Shown here: in pieces, positions 1-7,849 of the stretch
Layout of the letters: every line of letters starts with the position of its first letter
How positions within the stretch are numbered: position 1 is the first letter of the stretch
Virus record (IMG/VR): IMGVR_UViG_2526164666_000046
Reading direction: 5' to 3' (one strand)
Origin: a virus
Lineage: Duplodnaviria; Heunggongvirae; Uroviricota; Caudoviricetes
DNA length: 26,551 bases
Program-made: the position numbers and the translations under genes
The notes under the pieces: model-generated
Databases searched by the model: none
What the model was told of the DNA's origin: nothing
Seen by the model: the letters and a program-made list of their open reading frames with translations, nothing else

Positions 1-90
1 CCCACCGCTGACGTGGTGTATGACACACCCGTTGTGATTTTTCCATCTGGTACATACCCCGTCTCCCGTTATCCGGAAGCTGACAACAAT

Positions 91-119
91 AAAAAAGCCA
101 CCAGTTAACTACTGATGGC
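91..119 (-). terminator. Putative rho-independent terminator downstream of the small late-region genes
   Basis: Minus-strand hairpin GCCATCAG-(7 nt)-CTGGTGGC (one wobble pair) at plus 97-119, followed immediately by U6 (plus A-run 91-96); lies 13 nt past the stop of the 132..404 gene. Confidence 0.4.
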
Positions 120-131
120 CCTGACTCCCCG

Positions 132-404
132 TTACAGCATCATGACCGATTCGGGTTGAGGTTCAGTCGCATCGGCGACCGGTGATTCAGGCTGAACTTC
201 ACCGCTCTCTGCGGTGGTATCTCCCGCTTCAGTCGGTGGCTCTGCCTGTACACCAAGCAGCTCATCCAGAATGGCATCAACCTCTGCATCAAGACGCGCT
301 TCCAGGTTATGGCGAAGTTTTTGTTCAGTTGCGCTCCGGACTTCTTCAGAGCGCAGGACTTCCTTCACTGCTTCAGCAGTGACCAGGGATGTAATTTCTG
401 ACAT
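132..404 (-). CDS. Small acidic hypothetical protein (90 aa, MSEITSLVTAEAVKEVLRSEEV...), lambdoid late-region accessory protein
   Basis: ATG at 404-402 inside the 132..578 track ORF; the upstream 58 codons of the track ORF overlap the neighbouring gene and look non-coding. Acidic Pro/Glu-rich C-terminus. No family assigned. Confidence 0.5.
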   Translation of the reverse strand: MSEITSLVTAEAVKEVLRSEEVRSATEQKLRHNLEARLDAEVDAILDELLGVQAEPPTEAGDTTAESGEVQPESPVADATEPQPESVMML

Positions 405-444
405 GGGATTTTCTCGTCGAAAGATGTGATTAAGAAAGTTGCCG

Positions 445-624
445 CTAAATGAGCGGCTCTTCGGGTTTGCTTCCGGCTGACTGACTGGCGCTGATTTTCT
501 CAGCGGCCCTTTTTGCAATCTGTCTGCGCCAGACGTCACGCATGGCCCGGTATCCACCCGAGAGGAGATACAGCACACAGACCACCGTACAGAAGTACAG
601 CATTAACTGGTTCAGAAATGTCAT
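445..624 (-). CDS. Small single-pass membrane protein (59 aa, MTFLNQLMLYFCTVVCVLYLLSGG...)
   Basis: Below the 60-aa cutoff of the ORF track; ATG at 624-622 with GGAAAG 8 nt upstream, stop TAG at 447-445; one hydrophobic helix followed by a basic tail. Function unknown. Confidence 0.4.
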   Translation of the reverse strand: MTFLNQLMLYFCTVVCVLYLLSGGYRAMRDVWRRQIAKRAAEKISASQSAGSKPEEPLI

Positions 625-722
625 AATTTCTTTCCGTTATTGTTGACAATAAGAACTGTTTTCATTAAAAAACCAGAGTACGAAAGTATCGTTCCTTTAT
701 TTTTTCTCCATAGGTATCACCA

Positions 723-758
723 CCGCCAGCGTCCATTCCTGTCGCTGGCGGTTTTTTT
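723..758 (+). terminator. Strong plus-strand intrinsic terminator (9-bp GC stem + T7) in a minus-strand intergenic gap
   Basis: CCGCCAGCG (723-731) / loop 732-742 / CGCTGGCGG (743-751) followed by TTTTTTT (752-758). Not usable as a minus-strand terminator (no U-tract on that side). Confidence 0.5.
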
Positions 759-759
759 A

Positions 760-1446
760 TCATGCCGCAGTGTCTGTGCTGTTCACTTCCACCGCAATGC
801 TGTCTATCAGTACCGGGTAAGTCGCACCTCTGGTAATGTCTGTCACATGCAGTTTATCCGCCGCAAAGGCACTGACCGGTGACTGCGTCAGCGTGAACGG
901 TGTGCCAACCTGACCATCAATAACCGGCGTCACCTGAAGGCTGTTATTCCCGGCAAAGCGGAAAGCCAGCGTATGCCATTCGTTATCAAATGCGCCAAAG
1001 GTTCCCAGTTTCAGGTTGTTTGTCGCCACTTTCGCATTGTGGTACATCACATTCAGGTCTTTTGCATCTGTCTGGATGTAGAACGCTGCCAGCAGGTTAT
1101 TCCCCCCGTCTCCGGTCAGGGCAACGCCCTGTGGCAGTGAAGATACCGGCCAGTAAAACGCCATAACATACTGGTTCGCAGCCAGCGCTCCCGAAACCTT
1201 AAAGCGGCAGCGAATCTGCCCCCCTTTCTGTAACAGAGCCGCACCGTTGCCCGCGGCGTACTCCAGCACCCAGCTGCTTTTACCGGCTTCCTTGGTCAGC
1301 TTCACTGCCTTACCTCCGGTTCCCTCCGCATCGCTGACCACTTCTGCCCTGCCGCCACTGGCTGACCATCCCTGTACTTTCAGGCTTCCCTCTGACTCGC
1401 TGGCAAGGTAAGAGAGCAGTGCTCGCGACGCCTGTGGCTTCTGCAC
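760..1446 (-). CDS. C-terminal domain ORF (228 aa), probably the displaced 3' portion of the upstream esterase gene; possible carbohydrate-binding domain
   Basis: Open frame with no ATG (the track 'M' is GTG; first internal Met near residue 94); overlaps the esterase frame by 67 nt; Gly/Ala/Thr-rich beta-type composition. The two-piece layout fits a frameshifted long esterase gene. Confidence 0.45.
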   Translation of the reverse strand: MQKPQASRALLSYLASESEGSLKVQGWSASGGRAEVVSDAEGTGGKAVKLTKEAGKSSWVLEYAAGNGAALLQKGGQIRCRFKVSGALAANQYVMAFYWPVSSLPQGVALTGDGGNNLLAAFYIQTDAKDLNVMYHNAKVATNNLKLGTFGAFDNEWHTLAFRFAGNNSLQVTPVIDGQVGTPFTLTQSPVSAFAADKLHVTDITRGATYPVLIDSIAVEVNSTDTAA

Positions 1447-2699
1447 CGGAAGGCGATGACGGGCGCACCTCTGATACTGTCGATGATGCCCCCGCGTTTA
1501 GCGCCACTCTTCCCGCATGGCGCAAAATCGCCGTTGCCAGGACGGCCGGAAATAATCCCGCGGCGAGCCCATGAACTGAAATGGCTCGCCCTGTCCTGTG
1601 ACGTCCAGGTGGCTGAGCTGTCACGCCATTTCGAACCGTAATATCCGATACCCGGAATGTCCGGGTCTTCTTCCGGTTTGTTCGTCGGCACATTCACCCC
1701 GTTCTCATCCGTCATGAACGGTACGAAATGGATATTCTTTTCCGTTTTGTTTTTGTAGCTGCCGTACACCGTCTGGTACGAGGATTCGTTCTTCTGCTTC
1801 CAGAAATACGTCGTATCTCCACATATCCAGGGAACACCGCCAGCAGAGCCACCGACGCACTGACCTGCCATATCCGCCAGGTCTGCACGGAATTTATCAA
1901 CCAGCGCACCAAACTGTGCTGCGTGATTTACCGGCGTACCGCCAAAATCAAATTCCCCCTGCATCCACACCACGGCAAACAGCACATTTTTCGGGTTCTT
2001 CTTCAGTGCTGCTTTTGTTCGACCGATAAGGTCCTTATACAGCGGCTTGTCCACACCCCAGCGGGTTGAATTCTCCGAGGCACCACTCGCGTCACTGTAT
2101 GTGCCATCGGCTCCGGTGGTGAACGCTGAACCACCACGACAGCACGGAACCAGCAGAATGCCCGCATTCGCCGGTATAAACGGCAGCAATTTTTTGGCGA
2201 TATGCAGCCCTTGCCCCACGGTTCCGTACTGCCCCTTTGACAGGTCCGCTTTCGGATGGTTAAGGCGGCTCATGTCCTGCACATCATGCAGACAATGGTC
2301 CGCCGGAATGATGTCGTTATATTTGCATGCTGCACCGCCCGGTGTCACCGTACTGCGGCGCGCCAGCTGCTTAATACGCGGGTCCGGACGGTCATATGTC
2401 TCCGGCAGCGGAAGGCCTTCACCATATGCCATGCTGTTTGACTGCCCCGCCAGAACCACAACAAAGTAATACTCCGTGTCTCTGGTGGCGCTGATTACTG
2501 TGCCTTCTCCATCCGACGGCTTCACCAACACAGGTGTGGTGACATCACCTTCCGCCGCAATGGCCTGCATCAGAGTATAAGGCGTGATGGCCACCGGACT
2601 ACCAAACGGCTGCCAGCCCTCTTTCAGTTTGTGTGTCAGCTTTTCCGCAAGGTCTGACGGCGACGCCGCCCTGACAACATCATAATGTTTAATCGACAT
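1380..2699 (-). CDS. DUF1737 + SGNH-type esterase, NanS-p-like sialate O-acetylesterase (prophage late-region accessory gene)
   Basis: ATG at 2699-2697 (MSIKHYDVVRAASPSDLAEKLTHKLKEGWQPFGSPV, DUF1737-like N-terminus) with GGGAG 8 nt upstream; esterase block VVVLAGQSNSMAYG (GQSN catalytic-Ser motif). The last ~80 codons (R/C-rich) look out of frame. Family assignment from memory of prophage NanS-p proteins. Confidence 0.65.
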   Translation of the reverse strand: MSIKHYDVVRAASPSDLAEKLTHKLKEGWQPFGSPVAITPYTLMQAIAAEGDVTTPVLVKPSDGEGTVISATRDTEYYFVVVLAGQSNSMAYGEGLPLPETYDRPDPRIKQLARRSTVTPGGAACKYNDIIPADHCLHDVQDMSRLNHPKADLSKGQYGTVGQGLHIAKKLLPFIPANAGILLVPCCRGGSAFTTGADGTYSDASGASENSTRWGVDKPLYKDLIGRTKAALKKNPKNVLFAVVWMQGEFDFGGTPVNHAAQFGALVDKFRADLADMAGQCVGGSAGGVPWICGDTTYFWKQKNESSYQTVYGSYKNKTEKNIHFVPFMTDENGVNVPTNKPEEDPDIPGIGYYGSKWRDSSATWTSQDRASHFSSWARRGIISGRPGNGDFAPCGKSGAKRGGIIDSIRGAPVIAFRCRSHRRREHCSLTLPASQREA

Positions 2700-2925
2700 C
2701 GAATTTCTCCCGTGTACAGGAACAGAGTTAAAAAGCGGAACCGGAATCAAATTACAGGATGGCCATCTGCCAGTGGCTGGTCGTAAAAAAAAGGCCAACG
2801 CCATGCGCAGCCGGAAATAAAGGGATAACGATGATAGTTTGAGAAAAACAGAAACAACACTTTTGTGGCAAAGCATGGTGCCGGGTGCCTCCCGGTGAAT
2901 TCAGTATCAGCACCTGAATCCGCGA

Positions 2926-3577
2926 TTATCCCATATACCTGGTTGCTGATCGCCCCTCCGCACAGGGGGATTCACCATGCAGTAGTATTTTTAATAAACA
3001 GTAAACAAAAAAATCAAGCATTATGCAGGCTGTTTCTTTTATCACCGGCCACAGCAATACCACAATGCCGCAGACCAGCACCCCATCCGCCAGCACCGAC
3101 ATGATTCTGCTGGTGAAATCCACCATCACCACCAGAAACAGCAGGAGTGCAGCCACAGCCAGGCGCAGTTTTACCGCACAGGTGATTCTCCAGACGAAGA
3201 CCCAGAACACCGGCAATCTCTTCCAGCACCTTGCGCTCTTCCGGCTCAATTTCGCCGTCTGCCTCCGCAATGGCCACCGCCACATCCAGCACATCTTCCG
3301 CTTCACGCGTATCGTGTTTCACATCCTCGATCTCACGTAACGCCGCACGACGTACCATTTAAGTTCGTATCCAGCTGACCGATAATGGTTGCGCTAATCG
3401 CATTAATTTCTGACGTAAACGCGGACAGCGCAGGCTGATTACGCAGTACCTGTTCGATCTTCGCTTTCTAGGAAGCCTCACATTCACCATCTGCACAGGC
3501 CACCAGGTAGGCAGCATTAATAACCGCCTGTGCCAGATCGCGTTTCTCAAACTTTCCTTTTTCCGGTTAACATGACA
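2926..3577 (-). pseudogene. Decayed TerB-domain (tellurite-resistance TerB-like) gene followed by a hydrophobic segment
   Basis: TerB-like sequence is split over three frames: ...KGKFEKRDLAQAVINAAYLVACADGECEAS, in-frame TAG (plus 3468-3470), KAKIEQVLRNQPALSAFTSEINAISATIIGQLDTN, frameshift near 3340-3358, VRRAALREIEDVKHDTREAEDVLDVAVAIAEADGEIEPEERKVLEEIAGVLGLRLEN, then another shift into a transmembrane-like stretch (2926..3306 ORF). No intact start codon. Confidence 0.5.
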
Positions 3578-3671
3578 TACCAATAACTCTTGTCTAAAAA
3601 GCCAGCAAGATAAAAAGCCAGTATTCACGACCACCAGCGTGTTTACTGTACTGCACAAGGTTTACAGGTAC

Positions 3672-3689
3672 AAAAAAACCGCTCAGCGG
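3672..3689 (-). terminator. Putative minus-strand intrinsic terminator (candidate tR'-like site)
   Basis: Minus strand reads CCGC-TGA-GCGG followed by U7 (plus A-run 3672-3678). Short stem, so low confidence. Confidence 0.35.
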
Positions 3690-3814
3690 CGGGTTTAAGT
3701 TGTGTGGCGAAGTAACCACTCTTAACACGATATAATACTTTTTGCGTACGCGTTAGGATTTTTATAAACTATGCGTCCCCATTCTCGCTATCTTTAGTCG
3801 GTCCTGGAATACAC

Positions 3815-4261
3815 ATGAAAGTTAGAAGCATAGGATTTACAATAAATAACAATAACAAAAATATTAATACCGTTGACGTAATGAATGCTTTTATCAACGC
3901 ATCAAACAGAGAACACAGTCGCACAGACTATACTCGTAAAATTCTCATTTCGGATGTGAATGATTTCTATTATGGATTAGTTGTCACATTCAGAAACCAA
4001 AAAAAGAACTGTAAGTCGCAATTTGTTGATGGTAAATTCCAGCTTAAAATTGAAGATCTTCAAGGAAGTGACAAACTTGCTAATTTCAACTTTTTCTTAA
4101 TTAAAAAATCTAATCTTTCTGGTCTCTATATGTATCACCACGGTTCATGCAGTCTGAACACTCTCTTTTCTCATTTAGAAACAATAAGTAATGAATTTAT
4201 CAGAAATCAAAATAAAGAAGAAATAAAAAACTTGGTGATAAACCAAAACAAAAAGAAGTAA
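3815..4261 (+). CDS. Hypothetical protein (148 aa), first gene of the AT-rich Q-proximal cargo cassette
   Basis: Very AT-rich ORF with Asn/Lys-rich composition; TATAAT-like box about 80 nt upstream. Its frame and the next ORF's frame are both open across an A6 run (4225-4230), so this may be the N-terminal part of a ~270-aa protein. Confidence 0.45.
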   Translation: MKVRSIGFTINNNNKNINTVDVMNAFINASNREHSRTDYTRKILISDVNDFYYGLVVTFRNQKKNCKSQFVDGKFQLKIEDLQGSDKLANFNFFLIKKSNLSGLYMYHHGSCSLNTLFSHLETISNEFIRNQNKEEIKNLVINQNKKK

Positions 4262-4305
4262 CTGCAATAAATAAAAAATACAAAGAAAGACTGACTTTCA
4301 GCCTT

Positions 4306-4629
4306 ATGACAAATAAAAACAACATTCAGAGTGTTTTATGTCAATTCAAAGAGATTAAAAGCACAAGCTTTAAATTTAATTATATAGATTTTAAAGGTGG
4401 ACCAATGACTGCGCTTGAACAATTTGTTAACACCACCACAATAGATATGAATTTTAATTCTAGCGACAGAACAAAAGTGCAACAACTATCTCAGAATCTT
4501 TCAAATATTTATAATTCTATGAGTGGAGTTGCTAAAGCACAGGTTATTGCAGTAAACCATGCAGGAATAGAAAAAACCATTGATTTTATGAACTGCCCTG
4601 TTTTTTTGAAACATACGATTTCGATATAA
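4306..4629 (+). CDS. Hypothetical protein (107 aa), possibly the C-terminal part of the preceding gene
   Basis: Weak RBS; its frame is open upstream to 4216 and overlaps the end of the 3815..4261 frame. Same composition as its neighbours. Confidence 0.4.
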   Translation: MTNKNNIQSVLCQFKEIKSTSFKFNYIDFKGGPMTALEQFVNTTTIDMNFNSSDRTKVQQLSQNLSNIYNSMSGVAKAQVIAVNHAGIEKTIDFMNCPVFLKHTISI

Positions 4630-4725
4630 TTGCCGATAAAGTCAATGGATTGACAAACGATAATTATACAACAAACCCTGTTTTTGATATGATAAAAGAA
4701 GAAATGCTGAACGGGACGAATAAAA

Positions 4726-5274
4726 ATGCCTTTATATGAATGGCTAATAAATAAAAGATTGAGGTATCAGTACCTTACACTGCTTGCATTCTCGATCCTG
4801 GCATTGCTTGCACTTTACCTATTGTACAGAAACACACCTAAAGTAAGTGTTAACTTTTTTGAGTTTTATCATAAAAACTTACGAGGCTATCTCTTCTCCG
4901 GTTTTATTTCCGTGGGCTCATTTTTATTGAGCCTGCATACCTTTGTCATAATAAATTTACGCGATAAGGTTTTTGCAACTCAGGAATATAAGGAAATTTA
5001 TAGCATTGCCACTGGTATACCTATTGACAAAATCAATGATAGTGTACTTTATAAACCTTTAGACAATTTATCCTCATTTATTAATACATCAATATTATGT
5101 TCTATCACAACAGCAATTGCACAATTCACTATTGGACTTTCAACTAATTTATATGCATGCTTATTTTGCGTATGGCTTGCAATACTAACGGTATTTCTTT
5201 TATTACATTGCCTCATCATAATCAGACAAAATATTAAAATTTTATTAAAGCAACAGAGAAAAAAAGGGGGGTAA
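4726..5274 (+). CDS. Four-helix integral membrane protein (182 aa), last gene of the cargo cassette
   Basis: Four hydrophobic segments (YQYLTLLAFSILALLALYLLY; LFSGFISVGSFLLSLHTFVII; ILCSITTAIAQFTIGL; LYACLFCVWLAILTVFLLLHCLIII) and a basic C-tail; stop lies in the loop of the hairpin at 5266-5281. Confidence 0.55.
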   Translation: MPLYEWLINKRLRYQYLTLLAFSILALLALYLLYRNTPKVSVNFFEFYHKNLRGYLFSGFISVGSFLLSLHTFVIINLRDKVFATQEYKEIYSIATGIPIDKINDSVLYKPLDNLSSFINTSILCSITTAIAQFTIGLSTNLYACLFCVWLAILTVFLLLHCLIIIRQNIKILLKQQRKKGG

Positions 5275-5288
5275 TTCCCCCTAATATT
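5262..5288. terminator. Bidirectional hairpin terminator between the convergent membrane-protein gene and Q
   Basis: GGGGGG (5266-5271) / TAATT / CCCCC (5277-5281), flanked by an A-run on the plus side (5259-5265), which gives U7 on the minus strand directly after Q. Confidence 0.5.
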
Positions 5289-5628
5289 ACAACATTGAAA
5301 GCACACCATCCAGAAAACCAAGAGCTGTTTGCAACTCTTTTCTTATTGTCCCATCAGAACACTTCTGCTTCTTTGCAATAGTTCTTAGTGAGATGCCGAT
5401 AACAAAATGAGCAATAACCAACTCATACTCTTCGGGCTTATATTTCCGCAATCGCGCAACACAGCTGTCAATCATGATTCCTTCATCATCATCGCATTGT
5501 TGGCGTGTTTTCTTTCCATGAGGTAGTAAACCTTTAAACCCTGCAGCAACAGGCTGCCAGTCCACACCACTGTTATCTGCTGCAGCCCATGCACCCCAGC
5601 GGTCCAATACTTCATACATATCACGCAT
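5287..5628 (-). CDS. Late-gene antiterminator Q (Phage_antitermQ family, QuuD-like)
   Basis: MRDMYEVLDRWGAWAA...VDWQPVAAGFKGLLP...QQCDDDEGIMIDSCVARL...IAHFVIGISLRTIAKKQKCSDGTIRKELQTALGFLDGVLSML closely parallels the remembered E. coli QuuD sequence. Start taken at the ATG at 5628; the track ORF offers 5643 as an alternative. Confidence 0.8.
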   Translation of the reverse strand: MRDMYEVLDRWGAWAAADNSGVDWQPVAAGFKGLLPHGKKTRQQCDDDEGIMIDSCVARLRKYKPEEYELVIAHFVIGISLRTIAKKQKCSDGTIRKELQTALGFLDGVLSML

Positions 5629-5645
5629 CAACTTTCTCCACAAAA

Positions 5646-6641
5646 TCAGGCCAGCACGCCAATTGCCAGTGCACGATCGATAAAACGAAATATCAGCTCC
5701 AGCTGGGAGCCATACTTCTCTTCAAATGCCACGGTATCCGCATGCAGCTCGTCGTGATGCTTTCTGCACAAAGGCAACACAAAGAGGTCATGCGCTTTTG
5801 TAGCCATTCCACCCTGACCGTGACCTATCAGGTGGTGGGGATCATCAGCAGGTTTTCCACAACATGCGCACGGCTGCGTCTTAACCCATCGCGTGTACTT
5901 TTCATTAACCCAGCGGCGACGTTTTGGGCGTAACATAAAAGACTCCGGCGACTCCGGATCCACTTTCAGCGCCAGCACCTTTTTCGCTTTATCCTGGATG
6001 ATGCTGGTGGCAGGAACCGAAGGCACAAGGTCACTTTCCCGGGTGACAGACGGCACAACAGGCTTCGGTAATCTCAGTACCTTACGGGCTGCACTTTCCG
6101 GTAAGGCATCCGCCAGATCATTACGAATCAGCCACCAGCACAGTTCCGGCATTGTCACAACGTGACTGTCATCAAAACCGAGATCCCGACGCACGACAGA
6201 CAACACCCAGCGGGCACAGTTATCCGTTGCCATTGATTCCAGCCGTTCCGTGAACTGATCGCGCAGCTGGTTATCGCAGTGCCAGCACAGACGGATTGCG
6301 CCCGGCGCGTGTCGCATTGTGGTCATGTTCTCGCTGTGCCAGTCGGAATGAGGCCACTGGCAGCCTTTTTCACGAAGTAACCAGCTTTCAAGACATTCCA
6401 CGCCACCAGCACGACGGATCACTGCCTCATTGCGGAACACGGCCCGAACGGCAGGATCATCCGCCAGCGGTTGTGATGCCGCCGGAACGGCACCACTGGC
6501 GAAAGATGAATAACGTTCCGGCTCAGGCTCCAGCAGGACACGCCCCTGCATAAACAGGGGCATCAGCTCTGAACCTGGCCTGAACAATACGATCCCCATA
6601 CGCGGGGCAATTTCAGGGGTCAGTAGCGCTCTCACGGTCAC
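5646..6641 (-). CDS. DUF968-family phage protein (YdfU-like) with HNH-like Cys/His cluster
   Basis: C-terminal QPCACCGKPADDPHHLIGHGQGG...LPLCRKHHDELH motif pattern; position just upstream of Q as in Qin-type prophages. Start uncertain (GTG 6641/6635 or ATG 6599). Confidence 0.6.
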   Translation of the reverse strand: MTVRALLTPEIAPRMGIVLFRPGSELMPLFMQGRVLLEPEPERYSSFASGAVPAASQPLADDPAVRAVFRNEAVIRRAGGVECLESWLLREKGCQWPHSDWHSENMTTMRHAPGAIRLCWHCDNQLRDQFTERLESMATDNCARWVLSVVRRDLGFDDSHVVTMPELCWWLIRNDLADALPESAARKVLRLPKPVVPSVTRESDLVPSVPATSIIQDKAKKVLALKVDPESPESFMLRPKRRRWVNEKYTRWVKTQPCACCGKPADDPHHLIGHGQGGMATKAHDLFVLPLCRKHHDELHADTVAFEEKYGSQLELIFRFIDRALAIGVLA

Positions 6642-6642
6642 C

Positions 6643-7440
6643 TCAATGAACGGTATCGAGCAGCTTTAACAGCTCAGGGAACCGGGATTCGAAGAAATGC
6701 GGCTGCGTCTCGCGCGGATTTGCGGGACTGGTGATGTTCTTGCCGAACATGCAGCCTTTCGCCGTCAGCGACCAGAATTTTTTGATGTTGTTAATCGCAG
6801 TGCGGCTGTATCGTTCACGTTGTTCAACGATCCCCAGCTTCGCCATCTGGTGATATGCCTGATTAGCTGTCAGGCGGATACCATACTGCTTCAGCAGTGC
6901 ACTCAGTGACAGCGTGGGGCGGCTTGAGCCATCAGGCGCGTCAGCAGGAGCATCAATGGCATAGCGCGGTGCCAGATTCGGTAAGCCAACAGCCTCCTGG
7001 AGTTTCTGACAGGCTCCAAGCACTGATGAGTTAGACAGGTTTAATTCCCGGCGCATAAAGTCCAGCAGGATCACACCAGCCTGCATCTTGTCAGCAGCCT
7101 GTCCGGATAATTTTTCCGGTGCGCTGGTTACCATGTCGAAAGTACGGATCACCTTCAGATGGAATGACGGGCTGATCCACATTGCATAGGCATACACCAG
7201 TTCTTTGCAGACATACGTCCCCTGGCTATTTCCGCCACGAATAACGTTAACTGGCTCTATATTGACCGAGTTGCAAATCTGCAACTCGCTTATTAAACGT
7301 TCAGTTTGCTCATTGCGGAGCCAGAATGCAGGCTTATGCTTATCCAGAGAACCGGCAGCCCTGTGCAAATCGTTCAGGCTGTAACGACCATAAGCATCAC
7401 GACGAACTTCAATACCATCAATGACCATCAGATTATTCAT
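6643..7440 (-). CDS. KilA-N domain phage protein
   Basis: MNNLMVIDGIEVRRDAYGRYSLNDLHRAAGSLDKHKPAFWLRNEQTERLISEL fits the KilA-N N-terminal pattern as I remember it; ATG at 7440 with GAGGAG-type RBS. Confidence 0.55.
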   Translation of the reverse strand: MNNLMVIDGIEVRRDAYGRYSLNDLHRAAGSLDKHKPAFWLRNEQTERLISELQICNSVNIEPVNVIRGGNSQGTYVCKELVYAYAMWISPSFHLKVIRTFDMVTSAPEKLSGQAADKMQAGVILLDFMRRELNLSNSSVLGACQKLQEAVGLPNLAPRYAIDAPADAPDGSSRPTLSLSALLKQYGIRLTANQAYHQMAKLGIVEQRERYSRTAINNIKKFWSLTAKGCMFGKNITSPANPRETQPHFFESRFPELLKLLDTVH

Positions 7441-7459
7441 ACTTCGTTTCTCCTCTTGA

Positions 7460-7849
7460 TCAGGCGGCTGCACCCGCCGTTTTCTCGTACTTACTGATAG
7501 TGATCTCGACCTTCCCTTTCGGGATAACCGGTCCCCACTCCACCAGCATTCTTTTCACCTGTCTGTCGTCTTCCCACACACCCGCGTGGGTCAGGGCGTC
7601 AAACAGCGCCTTGTTATAGTTGTCCAGATCGCGGATCCGGTTATCCGGAGGAAACAACACGATCTCCACTGAAGCAGGTGCCGACGTTGGTTTCGGCAGA
7701 CGACGTAACTGCTCAACTATTGCTGCGCATGCCGCGCTCTGGAATTTGCGCCCCGCTGCGCTTATCAGACTCTTACCAGCAAACGCCCCTTTGTTGGGGT
7801 GTCGCCAGTACGTGTTCACGCTGGGCGGGAAAGGCAGGATCAGCTTCAT
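7460..7849 (-). CDS. rusA: Holliday-junction resolvase RusA
   Basis: MKLILPFPPSVNTYWRH...RDLDNYNKALFDALTHAGVWEDDRQV matches the RusA signature (PPS.N.Y; D.DN; FDAL). Start ATG overlaps the upstream stop (ATGA). Confidence 0.85.
   Translation of the reverse strand: MKLILPFPPSVNTYWRHPNKGAFAGKSLISAAGRKFQSAACAAIVEQLRRLPKPTSAPASVEIVLFPPDNRIRDLDNYNKALFDALTHAGVWEDDRQVKRMLVEWGPVIPKGKVEITISKYEKTAGAAA

Follow-up and report, generated by a model that had tools for sequence, protein, structure and literature searches.

The late cassette of phage 21, with its antiterminator Q21, is among the systems with which the present locus can best be compared (Yin et al. 2019, bioRxiv 10.1101/651190). The phage 21 annotation (OL657228), from which the QBE and pause-element sequences used here were taken, contains a -35 hexamer, the QBE, a -10 hexamer, the start, the pause element TAAGCTG and a terminator, and results in a transcript of ~50 nt. 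A second described arrangement is that of the K-12 prophage DLP12, which has the order quuD, antisense nmpC, a promoter (TTTACG-16-TATGCT), a leader with a terminator, and essD. The DLP12 lysis operon is under the control of a Q-type antiterminator (PMC7918800, citing Rueggeberg 2013). A DLP12 start was mapped by Cappable-seq on the plus strand at U00096.2 576452, which is NC_000913.3 577229 (PMC4782308, supplementary file 1); essD, nmpC and quuD are all absent from the eLife 3'-end data set. Defence hotspots have been described in P2/P4 prophages (Rousset et al. 2022, PMC9122126), and in phi80 the taiEcA system lies antisense within the Q-controlled late operon (PMC11364771). A literature search for a described hotspot of this kind in the interval from Q to the late promoter returned only the P2/P4 hotspots and phi80 tai.

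The window, which is the whole 26,551-nt stretch of phage DNA that was analysed, contains a related arrangement with the following features.

5287-5628, minus strand: Q antiterminator gene (PF06530), 113 aa from the RefSeq ATG
5259-5282, minus (Q) strand: predicted intrinsic terminator with a G5/C5 stem, AATTA loop and U7 tail, at the convergent junction of Q and the cassette
4726-5274, plus strand: cassette gene B, a 182-aa membrane protein with its stop codon in the terminator loop
3815-4739, plus strand: cassette gene A, a RexA/RdgC-fold protein, 308 aa in relatives
3742-3770, plus strand: candidate resident cargo promoter, TTGCGT (3742-3747), 17 nt, TAAACT (3765-3770), with the cassette ATG at 3815
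3770-3672, minus strand: late regulatory region, a conserved element linked to the Q clade
3739-3756, minus strand: invariant block CTAACGCGTACGCAAAAA with core palindrome GCGTACGC, in place of a -35 hexamer; candidate Q-binding element
3715-3737, minus strand: predicted late promoter core with overlapping -10-like hexamers TATTAT (3737-3732) and TATCGT (3732-3727)
3672-3690, minus strand: tR'-like intrinsic terminator, ~45 nt past the predicted late start

It is probable that the junction terminator insulates the converging Q and cassette, that the late region is intact beyond the cassette, and that the gap between Q and the late region is a slot for cargo genes. The window resembles phage 21 in having a PF06530 Q, a Q-specific block just upstream of the -10 hexamer, a TAAG-type motif near the start (TAAGCT in phage 21, TAAGAG in the window) and a terminator within ~50 nt. 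The two differ in the Q protein, which is ~27% identical and has 162 aa in phage 21 and 113 aa in the window. The phage 21 QBE consists of two direct 8-bp repeats, whereas the block in the window is an 8-bp palindrome with an A-tract. Phage 21 has a -35 hexamer, which the late promoter of the window lacks, and its pause motif is located at +2 to +8, while the TAAGAG of the window straddles the predicted start. The distance from Q also differs: the -35 is 7 nt away in phage 21 and 27 nt away in SfV, but the late region of the window is 1.5 kb away. Unlike in the canonical lambdoid layout, PR' is not directly downstream of Q.

The window Q matches Pfam PF06530 with an E value of 2.5e-45 and 153.7 bits (cut-off 26) over profile positions 1-113 of 118. 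The match to the solved Q21 chains 6jnx and 6p18 is weak and collinear (E 2.6e-4), with 27% identity by BLASTP. RefSeq names the gene product 'antiterminator Q family protein'. Judged by these matches, the window Q is a member of a short clade within the Q21 family. The Q proteins of the window, Stx2a_WGPS2 and SfII are 75-90% identical, and the sister Q clade, represented by the QuuD-like Q of PhiR40_1, is 43% identical to the window Q. The Q fold resembles sigma region 4.

The first-pass annotation placed a strong terminator right after Q, and this is borne out by the sequence, a terminator scan, folding and shuffling. The hairpin starts 5 nt past the Q stop codon (5289-5287, minus strand). 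On this strand it consists of GGGGG (5281-5277), the AATTA loop (5276-5272) and CCCCC (5271-5267), followed by a single C (5266) and T7 (5265-5259), so that there are 5-6 G-C pairs in the stem and the U7 lies one base past it. The hairpin ranks among the best minus-strand sites in the scan and has a folding energy of ~-12 kcal/mol on either strand (-12.7 on the plus, -11.8 on the minus). The 26.5-kb window contains the pattern G5-N3-8-C5-N0-2-T5 at a single locus, and the pattern was absent from all 100 dinucleotide-preserving shuffles of the window. Among diverged homologous cassettes a GC hairpin with a T-run is kept in 8 of 10 junction types, with unrelated stem sequences, and other cassettes, those of WGPS2, SfII and PhiR40_1, each have their own junction hairpin. 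A simple detector recognises terminators in about half of all junction types.

A chance hairpin and T-run without function in AT-rich foreign DNA is extremely improbable. The stem is 5-6 bp long and the folding z-scores for the 51-nt context are modest (-1.7 and -2.6), which would suit a chance origin; however, the shuffles did not reproduce the structure, it is located exactly between the converging stop codons, and hairpins are kept in the diverged relatives. The junction has a GC stem-loop with a U-tract at the 3' end of a unit, and the structure is kept despite sequence change. These features suggest that the hairpin is a factor-independent terminator which would act in vivo.

The hairpin could instead be chiefly the terminator of the cassette operon on the plus strand, in which case it moved with the cassette and the termination of Q is incidental. 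The cassette stop codon (plus, 5272-5274) falls within the loop, the plus strand is slightly more stable, and each cassette type has its own junction hairpin, which suggests that the hairpin belongs to the cargo and not to Q. The tails argue against this, since the uninterrupted U7 is on the Q strand and the plus-strand tail, UAAUAUUA, has just 4 U in 8; homologous cassettes likewise have the T-rich tail 3' of the hairpin on the Q strand. That the hairpin is chiefly the cassette terminator is therefore unlikely. Bidirectional terminators are common at convergent junctions, so the two readings are compatible, and since the cassette stop is inside the loop the hairpin serves both converging genes.

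Two units appear to converge at this hairpin, the early-right operon ending with Q on the minus strand and the two-gene, low-G+C cassette on the plus strand. The terminator would end the Q transcript and keep polymerase from the early promoter from running antisense through the cassette. A weaker effect would be that cassette transcripts are kept from entering Q in the antisense direction. Since Q is a DNA-binding protein acting in trans, the hairpin leaves the contact between Q and its target uncut.

The 1.5 kb beyond the hairpin is oppositely oriented, as had been proposed, and has ~30% G+C compared to roughly 50% in its flanks. Past this stretch, the late element contains, in order, the invariant block, an invariant TAnnnT, TGnTAAGAGTGGT, a short leader and the intrinsic terminator. 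The tR'-like hairpin that had been listed at 3672-3689 is real, with the minus-strand sequence CCGC-TGA-GCGG and a T7 after it; it is short (four G-C pairs plus a wobble), and its homologue carries a terminator annotation in phages SfV and Ayreon. The segment 3561-3735 is common to phages with other Q types at 93-96% identity. An Rfam scan of 3300-5700 with E up to 1 gave zero matches.

It had been suggested that the cassette insertion displaced or replaced the late regulatory region and endangered late expression. The first part stands insofar as the late region lies ~1.5 kb away from Q, just upstream of 3672-3690; its replacement is not supported. In its strong form, this explanation states that the insertion destroyed or displaced the late promoter and qut, so that the prophage makes Q while its late genes stay off. 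In agreement with it, there is nothing promoter-like in the 12-nt gap between the Q stop and the cassette, and a simple sigma-70 consensus scan found no minus-strand promoter in 3690-3815. The window also has broken genes: TerB has an internal stop even in RefSeq, the esterase is frameshifted, and gene A has single-base homopolymer deletions at 4225 and 4601. However, most frameshifts of the window look like assembly errors: they are single-base indels, and apart from them the relatives used for comparison show no SNPs. The conserved element linked to Q is intact at 3770-3672 and has an identical sequence in LR595868 and ON470598, both phage genome records; the region 3561-5700 (Q, cassette and leader) is 99.8% identical in the former and 99.5% identical in the latter. 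In these two records the module is followed by methylase, holin and endolysin genes, a full lysis module, and the deposits as phage genomes suggest that the phages are viable. In this clade Q and the element are as a rule set apart by antisense cargo, with only four empty slots, and a start has been mapped in DLP12, where the layout is the same. The loss of the late region is thus very unlikely, and the concern over late expression is not supported.

The module in the phage genomes and the layout and start site of DLP12 argue for a working layout; therefore, the junction terminator is probably an ordinary insulator where genes converge. DLP12 resembles the window in its short PF06530 Q, oppositely oriented cargo, promoter, shared GTTAAGAGTGG leader with terminator, and lysis genes. 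It differs in that its Q is of another clade, the canonical -35 TTTACG and a different spacer replace the invariant block, and the cargo is a porin (nmpC), not a defence-like pair. Such an arrangement is usual in phages of the window's group, with a start in the window Q clade that is predicted by homology. The terminator behind Q gives no reason to regard the late switch as damaged, and it is not a ground for classing the prophage as defective.

The DLP12 start is 7 nt after TATGCT, at the position homologous to the predicted start in the window; it has a low read score (1.7) and, coming from the sister clade, is the sole experimental start. The late start in the window prophage is predicted at ~3720 on the minus strand. 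The promoter core continues with TGTTAAGAGTGGT (3727-3715), which contains the predicted start A3720. There is no recognisable -35 hexamer in the window clade, and the hexamer at 3732-3727 is without an extended -10. Q would bind the invariant block (3756-3739), which is seated where a -35 would be. The promoter would use TATCGT (3732-3727) as the -10 and start at ~3720, with TGnTAAGAGTGGT across the start. Polymerase modified by Q would then pass the tR'-like terminator (3690-3672) into the nanS-p esterase and lysis genes.

The hexamer TATTAT (3737-3732) was first favoured as the -10 because of the phage 21 spacing. It was demoted since the sister clade has a canonical -35 located 16 nt from the hexamer at positions 25-30 and a start 7 nt after that hexamer, and since TAnnnT at positions 25-30 (3732-3727) is invariant, being present in all 140 unique relatives. 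TATTAT is kept as an alternative: with the -10 at 3737-3732 the start could be at ~3725 and TAAGAG could be a pause element, which matches the phage 21 geometry exactly. In this register the TGnTAAGAGT motif would sit at +2 to +7. The motif is nearly invariant and spans -7 to +3 of the start deduced from DLP12. With that start, a canonical sigma-dependent pause element is not evident 3' of it, and the -10-like TAAGAG straddles it. A further candidate, TGnTAAGAG as an extended -10 promoter that would start near position 45, was rejected, since Cappable-seq has no such DLP12 start.

The late element is found in ~140 related loci from many Enterobacterales, in which the short Q clade is followed by the conserved element on the same strand, 105-2,923 nt after Q. 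Among Q-anchored loci from more than 20 genera, the block is downstream of Q on the same strand in 46 of 49, at distances of 132-2,895 nt from the Q match that vary with the cargo, and the reverse-strand control for these loci gave no site with three or fewer mismatches. The association also holds when the search begins from the block. All 95 IMG/VR contigs that have the 18-mer block and a detectable Q in the upstream DNA carry the window Q clade upstream on the same strand, and a Q of the Q21, QuuD or Q82 type was found upstream of the block in none of them. One contig (L042) has the block with co-oriented upstream genes and no Q within 3.8 kb. The invariant positions in the conservation logo are 6-14, 25-26, 30-31 and 33-34, including T30, G31, T33 and A34. 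The window, Stx2a_WGPS2 and SfII have block, -10-like hexamer and leader in common, even though their cassettes are unrelated; BLASTP shows no homology among the three cassettes. The block sequence was not found by a full-text search of the searchable literature, which returned only an unrelated HPV paper.

A different block of its own stands upstream in the sister Q clade. It follows that Q type in all 48 cases examined; from the -10 hexamer on, the two clades have a common sequence. A block that is exchanged while the -10 and all that follows is kept is the pattern expected of a specificity determinant. As in the Q21 family, the element co-varies with the Q type and has a terminator within ~50 nt. 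The candidate Q element is sharply defined and invariant, which makes the specificity of Q directly testable.

Alternatively, the block at 3739-3756 could control the cargo slot, as its promoter or operator, or bind some other regulator, and co-occur with Q through linkage alone. Its reverse complement places a TTG 17 bp from a conserved reverse-strand TAnnnT, with first cargo ORFs beginning ~50 nt away (median distance from the block, 53 nt). The reverse-strand TAnnnT is present at the cargo-promoter register in 59-66% of the 140 unique sequences compared to 3% in the background. The core is also an 8-bp palindrome, unlike the direct repeat of the Q21 QBE. Against this, the 13 invariant positions exceed what a -35 hexamer needs, the block survives in the four loci with an empty slot, and its spacing to the -10, the start and TAAGAG is within a few bp of that of the phage 21 QBE. 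Furthermore, the sister Q clade replaces exactly the block segment and leaves the sequence from the -10 on unchanged. A block unrelated to Q is therefore decidedly unlikely. Since the TTG of the plausible divergent cargo promoter falls within the invariant block, part of the block conservation may serve the cargo.

Across the ~140 loci, the architectures of the slot between Q and the element number more than 40 and its proteins fall into 59 clusters; in the window the slot extends 1,530 nt from the Q stop to the block. It is empty in just four loci (L106 and L172-L174), all of which keep the block. In every locus that has both Q and the block the large ORFs are all antisense to Q, and the sole case of cargo that is not antisense has no Q nearby. 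The slot of the window Q clade is thus nearly always filled with antisense genes, which would be expressed in the lysogen. The slot proteins match the PADLOC models NsnB, PDC-M53, AriA, HEC-01A, AbiLi and Old/GajA-like, and Pfam families including RelA_SpoT, HipA_2, methylase and KwaB-like; the SfII cassette consists of PDC-M53 A and B (PADLOC). Many of the slot cassettes encode known or candidate defence proteins.

The slot is similar to the morons and hotspots of HK97/HK022 and P2/P4 in having variable cargo between conserved phage genes, a deviant G+C content and its own terminator. As in those systems, an own promoter is probable and many of the cargoes are defence systems. In the window the cassette is variable between conserved flanks, has an atypical composition and its own terminator, and the promoter is a candidate. 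In contrast to phi80 taiEcA, which interrupts the late operon, the slot is upstream of the late promoter and its cargo is strictly antisense to Q; therefore, late transcripts bypass the cargo. The short clade of the Q21 family thus keeps its target promoter distant, and the gap is a hotspot for antisense cargo that could be useful for mining anti-phage systems.

The cassette of the window has two genes. The product of gene A has the RexA/RdgC fold. Gene B lies downstream in the same operon, its ORF sharing 14 nt with the end of gene A. Its product is a small polytopic membrane protein with three hydrophobic stretches, the last of which is double-length (40 aa), so that ~4 TM segments are predicted. 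Neither gene matches PADLOC-DB 2.0, and gene B has no Pfam match. In a single one-to-one BLASTP comparison gene B matches lambda RexB weakly and collinearly (E 0.026), and gene A has no detectable sequence similarity to RexA (hhalign probability 0.3%), so sequence homology to RexA and RexB is not established for either gene. The pairing of a RexA-fold protein with a small membrane protein is likely to be a Rex-like phage-exclusion system. The location differs from that in lambda, where rexA-rexB adjoins cI; the pair in the window is between Q and PR'.

A more speculative, and on balance doubtful, proposal is that the Q site replaces the late -35 and doubles as the -35 of the cargo promoter (TTGCGT), so that Q would be a two-way switch and the slot a dock for defence genes gated by Q. 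Block-bound Q would recruit polymerase to, or load onto polymerase at, an otherwise weak promoter and turn the late genes on. Its binding would also occlude the cargo promoter, so that the defence expressed in the lysogen is turned off before it aborts the lytic growth of the phage itself. If true, the slot would be dedicated to the docking of defence genes under Q control throughout Enterobacterales, and new two-gene systems, for instance pairs of a RexA-fold protein and a membrane protein, would come from it.

Stx2a phages such as WGPS2 have the same Q and element upstream of stx2; therefore, the strength of the promoter without a -35 may bear on toxin output. In the early region of the window, an N-type antiterminator is not evident in the RefSeq annotation. 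The immunity region of the prophage is e14-like, with ymfK, ymfT and ymfL.

The layout of Q, a terminator, antisense cargo and a distant late element is, by comparison of sequences, the norm for the Q clade of the window, with a precedent in the cryptic E. coli K-12 prophage DLP12. The loss of the late switch suspected in the first-pass annotation, by displacement or replacement of the late regulatory region, is unsupported. The features concerned are as follows (window positions).

5287-5628, minus strand: Q gene, 113 aa, Pfam PF06530 (Q21 family)
5289-5287, minus strand: Q stop codon TAA, followed by a TATTA spacer before the stem
5281-5259, minus strand: terminator hairpin read from the sequence, GGGGG 5281-5277, AATTA loop, CCCCC 5271-5267, C, TTTTTTT 5265-5259
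3757-5286, antisense to Q: cargo slot, from compared loci L012-L180
3756-3739, minus strand: block, an 18-mer conserved across the Q clade
3732-3727, minus strand: TATCGT, the invariant TAnnnT hexamer
3727-3715, minus strand: TGTTAAGAGTGGT, near-invariant motif
3678-3672, minus strand: T-run of the terminator after the late leader, from the sequence
3742-3747 and 3765-3770, plus strand: candidate resident cargo promoter, TTGCGT, 17 nt, TAAACT, in the cargo-sense TAnnnT register

The terminator at the junction of Q and the cassette is real and ordinary. A hairpin with U7 had been noted directly after Q, and that observation holds. In a consensus scan it scores with the top terminator-like sites of the region. 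Its folding energy is about -12 kcal/mol on both strands, and a search of the window for the G5-loop-C5-T5 pattern gives this single locus, against none in 100 shuffles. The loop contains the stop codon of the converging plus-strand ORF 4726-5274, so the hairpin lies exactly between two convergent genes. The T-run is uninterrupted on the Q strand, and the plus-strand tail is weaker. Every cassette type brings a hairpin of its own to the Q junction; in diverged homologues of the window cassette, a GC hairpin with a T-run is kept in 8 of 10 junction types with unrelated stems, which argues for selection on function rather than on sequence. In the most economical reading, the hairpin would stop the early-right transcript after Q, which would keep antisense transcription and collisions away from the lysogen-expressed cassette, and it would also curb cassette read-through into Q. 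An antisense paQ transcript is annotated in phage 21, and unchecked read-through into Q would be similar. Q is a trans-acting protein that works on DNA, so the terminator is no functional barrier between Q and its target.

The by-products of this comparative inference are more interesting than the terminator: a Q-linked element, a defence-rich slot and a RexA-fold cassette. The minus strand was aligned from the cassette start to the conserved downstream genes. The window, the phages WGPS2 and SfII have in common CTAACGCGTACGCAAAAA-N-TATT(A/G)TATCGTGTTAAGAGTGGTTACTTCGCCACACA, followed by a terminator. In PhiR40_1, with a Q of 43% identity, the common part begins only at TATGCTGTTAAGAGTGG, with TTTACA 16 nt upstream of it. 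SfV, 720R4 and Ayreon, which carry a 250-aa Q82-type Q, have only the terminator and the sequence after it in common, and TTGCAT-17-TAAGAT and an AACGAT pause-like motif lie immediately 3' of their Q. The segment just above the common leader thus varies with Q type, which is how a Q recognition site should behave. A 175-bp segment (window 3561-3735, comprising the 3' leader, tR' and downstream sequence) is 93-96% identical in phages with very different Q, namely mEp460, Ayreon, SfV and Stx2c phages, so the recombination boundary that separates Q-specific from common DNA falls inside the late leader.

The block occurs in at least 120 IMG/VR contigs. The nearest same-strand upstream Q belongs to the clade of the window (62-100% identity) in all 95 contigs with a detectable upstream Q, and none of the 95 has a Q21-, QuuD- or Q82-type Q there. 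A second search was anchored on the Q protein and is independent of the DNA motif; it gave 49 loci in species-representative genomes of Enterobacter, Citrobacter, Klebsiella, Serratia, Yersinia, Pantoea, Erwinia, Providencia and others. The block lies downstream on the same strand in 46 of these, mostly with 0-2 mismatches and 132-2,895 nt past the Q match; in two of the other three, less than 1.5 kb of DNA follows. Among reverse-strand control sites in these loci, none comes within three mismatches of the block. The sister-clade block CGTAAAAAATCAAATATGCTG has a PhiR40_1/QuuD-type Q upstream in 48 of 48 informative contigs. Across 45 unique Q-anchored sequences, numbered from the 5' end of the block, the element does not vary at positions 2, 6-14 (GCGTACGCA), 25-26 (TA), 30-31 (TG) and 33-34 (TA); AGAGTGGT comes next, conserved at 80-98%. 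TAnnnT is present at positions 25-30 in 140 of 140 unique sequences, against a background of 3%. The Q-linked element is sharply conserved and lacks a -35 hexamer, and it appears to be undescribed.

Q21 itself is a remote relative of the window Q (PDB match E 2.6e-4; 27% identity), and its mechanism has been described (bioRxiv 10.1101/651190). In the annotated phage 21 genome, the -35 hexamer is 7 nt after Q, the spacer holds QBEu ATTGAGCA and QBEd AATGAGCA, and past these are the -10, the start and, at +2, the pause element TAAGCTG; a terminator is no more than about 50 nt away. In the window element the parts come in that order, and the size is similar. DLP12 has quuD, the opposed IS5-disrupted porin gene nmpC, TTTACG-16-TATGCT-GTTAAGAGTGG, a leader and terminator as in the window, and essD. 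According to PMC7918800, a Q-type antiterminator controls its lysis operon. In the Cappable-seq table of PMC4782308, 576452 is the only plus-strand start from U00096.2 576081 to 576907. With an offset of +777 to NC_000913.3, which as a check places a neighbouring strong start 7 nt past TATTAT, the DLP12 start is at 577229, an A seven nt past TATGCT at element position 37. By homology, the late start of the window is predicted at A3720 with a leader of about 45 nt. Unlike in a textbook promoter, the -35 hexamer is absent with the invariant block in its place, and a near-invariant TGnTAAGAGT straddles the predicted start instead of lying downstream. An alternative register, with TATTAT (3737-3732) as -10, a start near 3725 and TAAGAG as pause element, would match the phage 21 spacing exactly. 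The motif TGTTAAGAGTGGT, near-invariant over two Q clades, resembles an extended -10; it spans the mapped DLP12 start (-7 to +6), and a sigma-dependent pause element is expected downstream of a start. K-12 also has a strong Cappable-seq start (score 90) at NC_000913.3 576858, plus strand (about 4359 in the DLP12 locus, L182). It lies in the nmpC-essD spacer, which is unannotated, 7 nt after TATTAT and at a distance of 33 nt from the start codon of nmpC.

The noted 1.5 kb of opposite orientation holds as 3815-5274, where G+C is about 30% and that of the flanks about 50%, and so does the second hairpin, CCGC-TGA-GCGG with T7 at 3690-3672 on the minus strand. The window cassette is a two-gene, RexA-fold type. 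Over about 140 loci, the Q stop lies 105-2,923 nt from the block in many discrete classes, and the contents comprise 43 architectures and 59 protein clusters. The slot is empty (105-122 nt) in just four loci, of which three are in Serratia genomes and one in an IMG/VR contig; in all filled slots, the large ORFs run antisense to Q. The sole exception is IMG/VR contig 2690316288_000008, with three co-oriented ORFs (405, 579 and 298 aa) upstream of the block and no Q within 3.8 kb of it. Slot proteins match PADLOC models (NsnB, PDC-M53A/B, AriA, HEC-01A, AbiLi, mad3, Old/GajA-like ATPases) and Pfam families (NA37, RelA_SpoT, HipA_2, DNA methylases, KwaB-like). The slot between Q and its putative promoter is a hotspot of defence-rich antisense cargo. 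Many cargoes are a pair of a ~270-340-aa protein and a ~160-195-aa membrane protein. In 59-66% of sequences, the cargo-sense strand has a TAnnnT at 17 bp from the TTG that is invariant in the block, and the median distance between the block and the start of the first cargo ORF is 53 nt.

Upstream of Q on the same strand are DUF968, KilA-N, RusA, a LexA-like gene, a methyltransferase and an e14-like immunity region; no N-type antiterminator is annotated upstream of Q in the window. Downstream of the 3672-3690 hairpin are a TerB-family pseudogene, DUF3927, a nanS-p-type esterase and a holin. In 217 complete E. coli genomes, 3 kb of DNA around the terminator is at least 99% identical, with best matches in O26, O103 and O111 strains. 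Against a near-identical RefSeq genome, 16 indels, 15 single-base and one of two bases, lie at 38-4601 in the first 4.6 kb, for example at 1424, 1540, 2797, 3353, 4225 and 4601, and there are no substitutions from 1547 to 7562. Cassette gene A and the nanS-p-type esterase are split by indels, which are probably assembly or homopolymer errors and not real pseudogenes. The first gene past tR', of the TerB/TciA family (about 3172-3534; 3179-3541 in compared locus L001), is a RefSeq pseudogene whose internal stop, unlike the cassette frameshifts, is common to finished genomes.

The module from 3561 to 5700 (Q, terminator, cassette, intergenic region and 3672-3690 hairpin) is 99.8% identical in Escherichia virus mEp460_4F5 (LR595868) and 99.5% in vB_EcoS-569R4 (ON470598), where genes for a DNA methylase, holin, endolysin and Rz come next. 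Genes opposed to a short Q and right after it also occur in SfII (340 aa and 194 aa), Stx2a_WGPS2 (343 aa and 179 aa) and PhiR40_1 (148 aa). Q is 75-90% identical among the window, WGPS2 and SfII by BLASTP, which found no relatedness among the post-Q cassettes of the compared phages. WGPS2, an O157:H7 Stx2a-converting phage (L010, 1496-3666), has the Q clade, block and leader of the window with a different antisense cassette (343 + 179 aa). Its element is upstream of a methylase, tRNA genes and stx2, so a late promoter without a -35 hexamer may matter for toxin expression.
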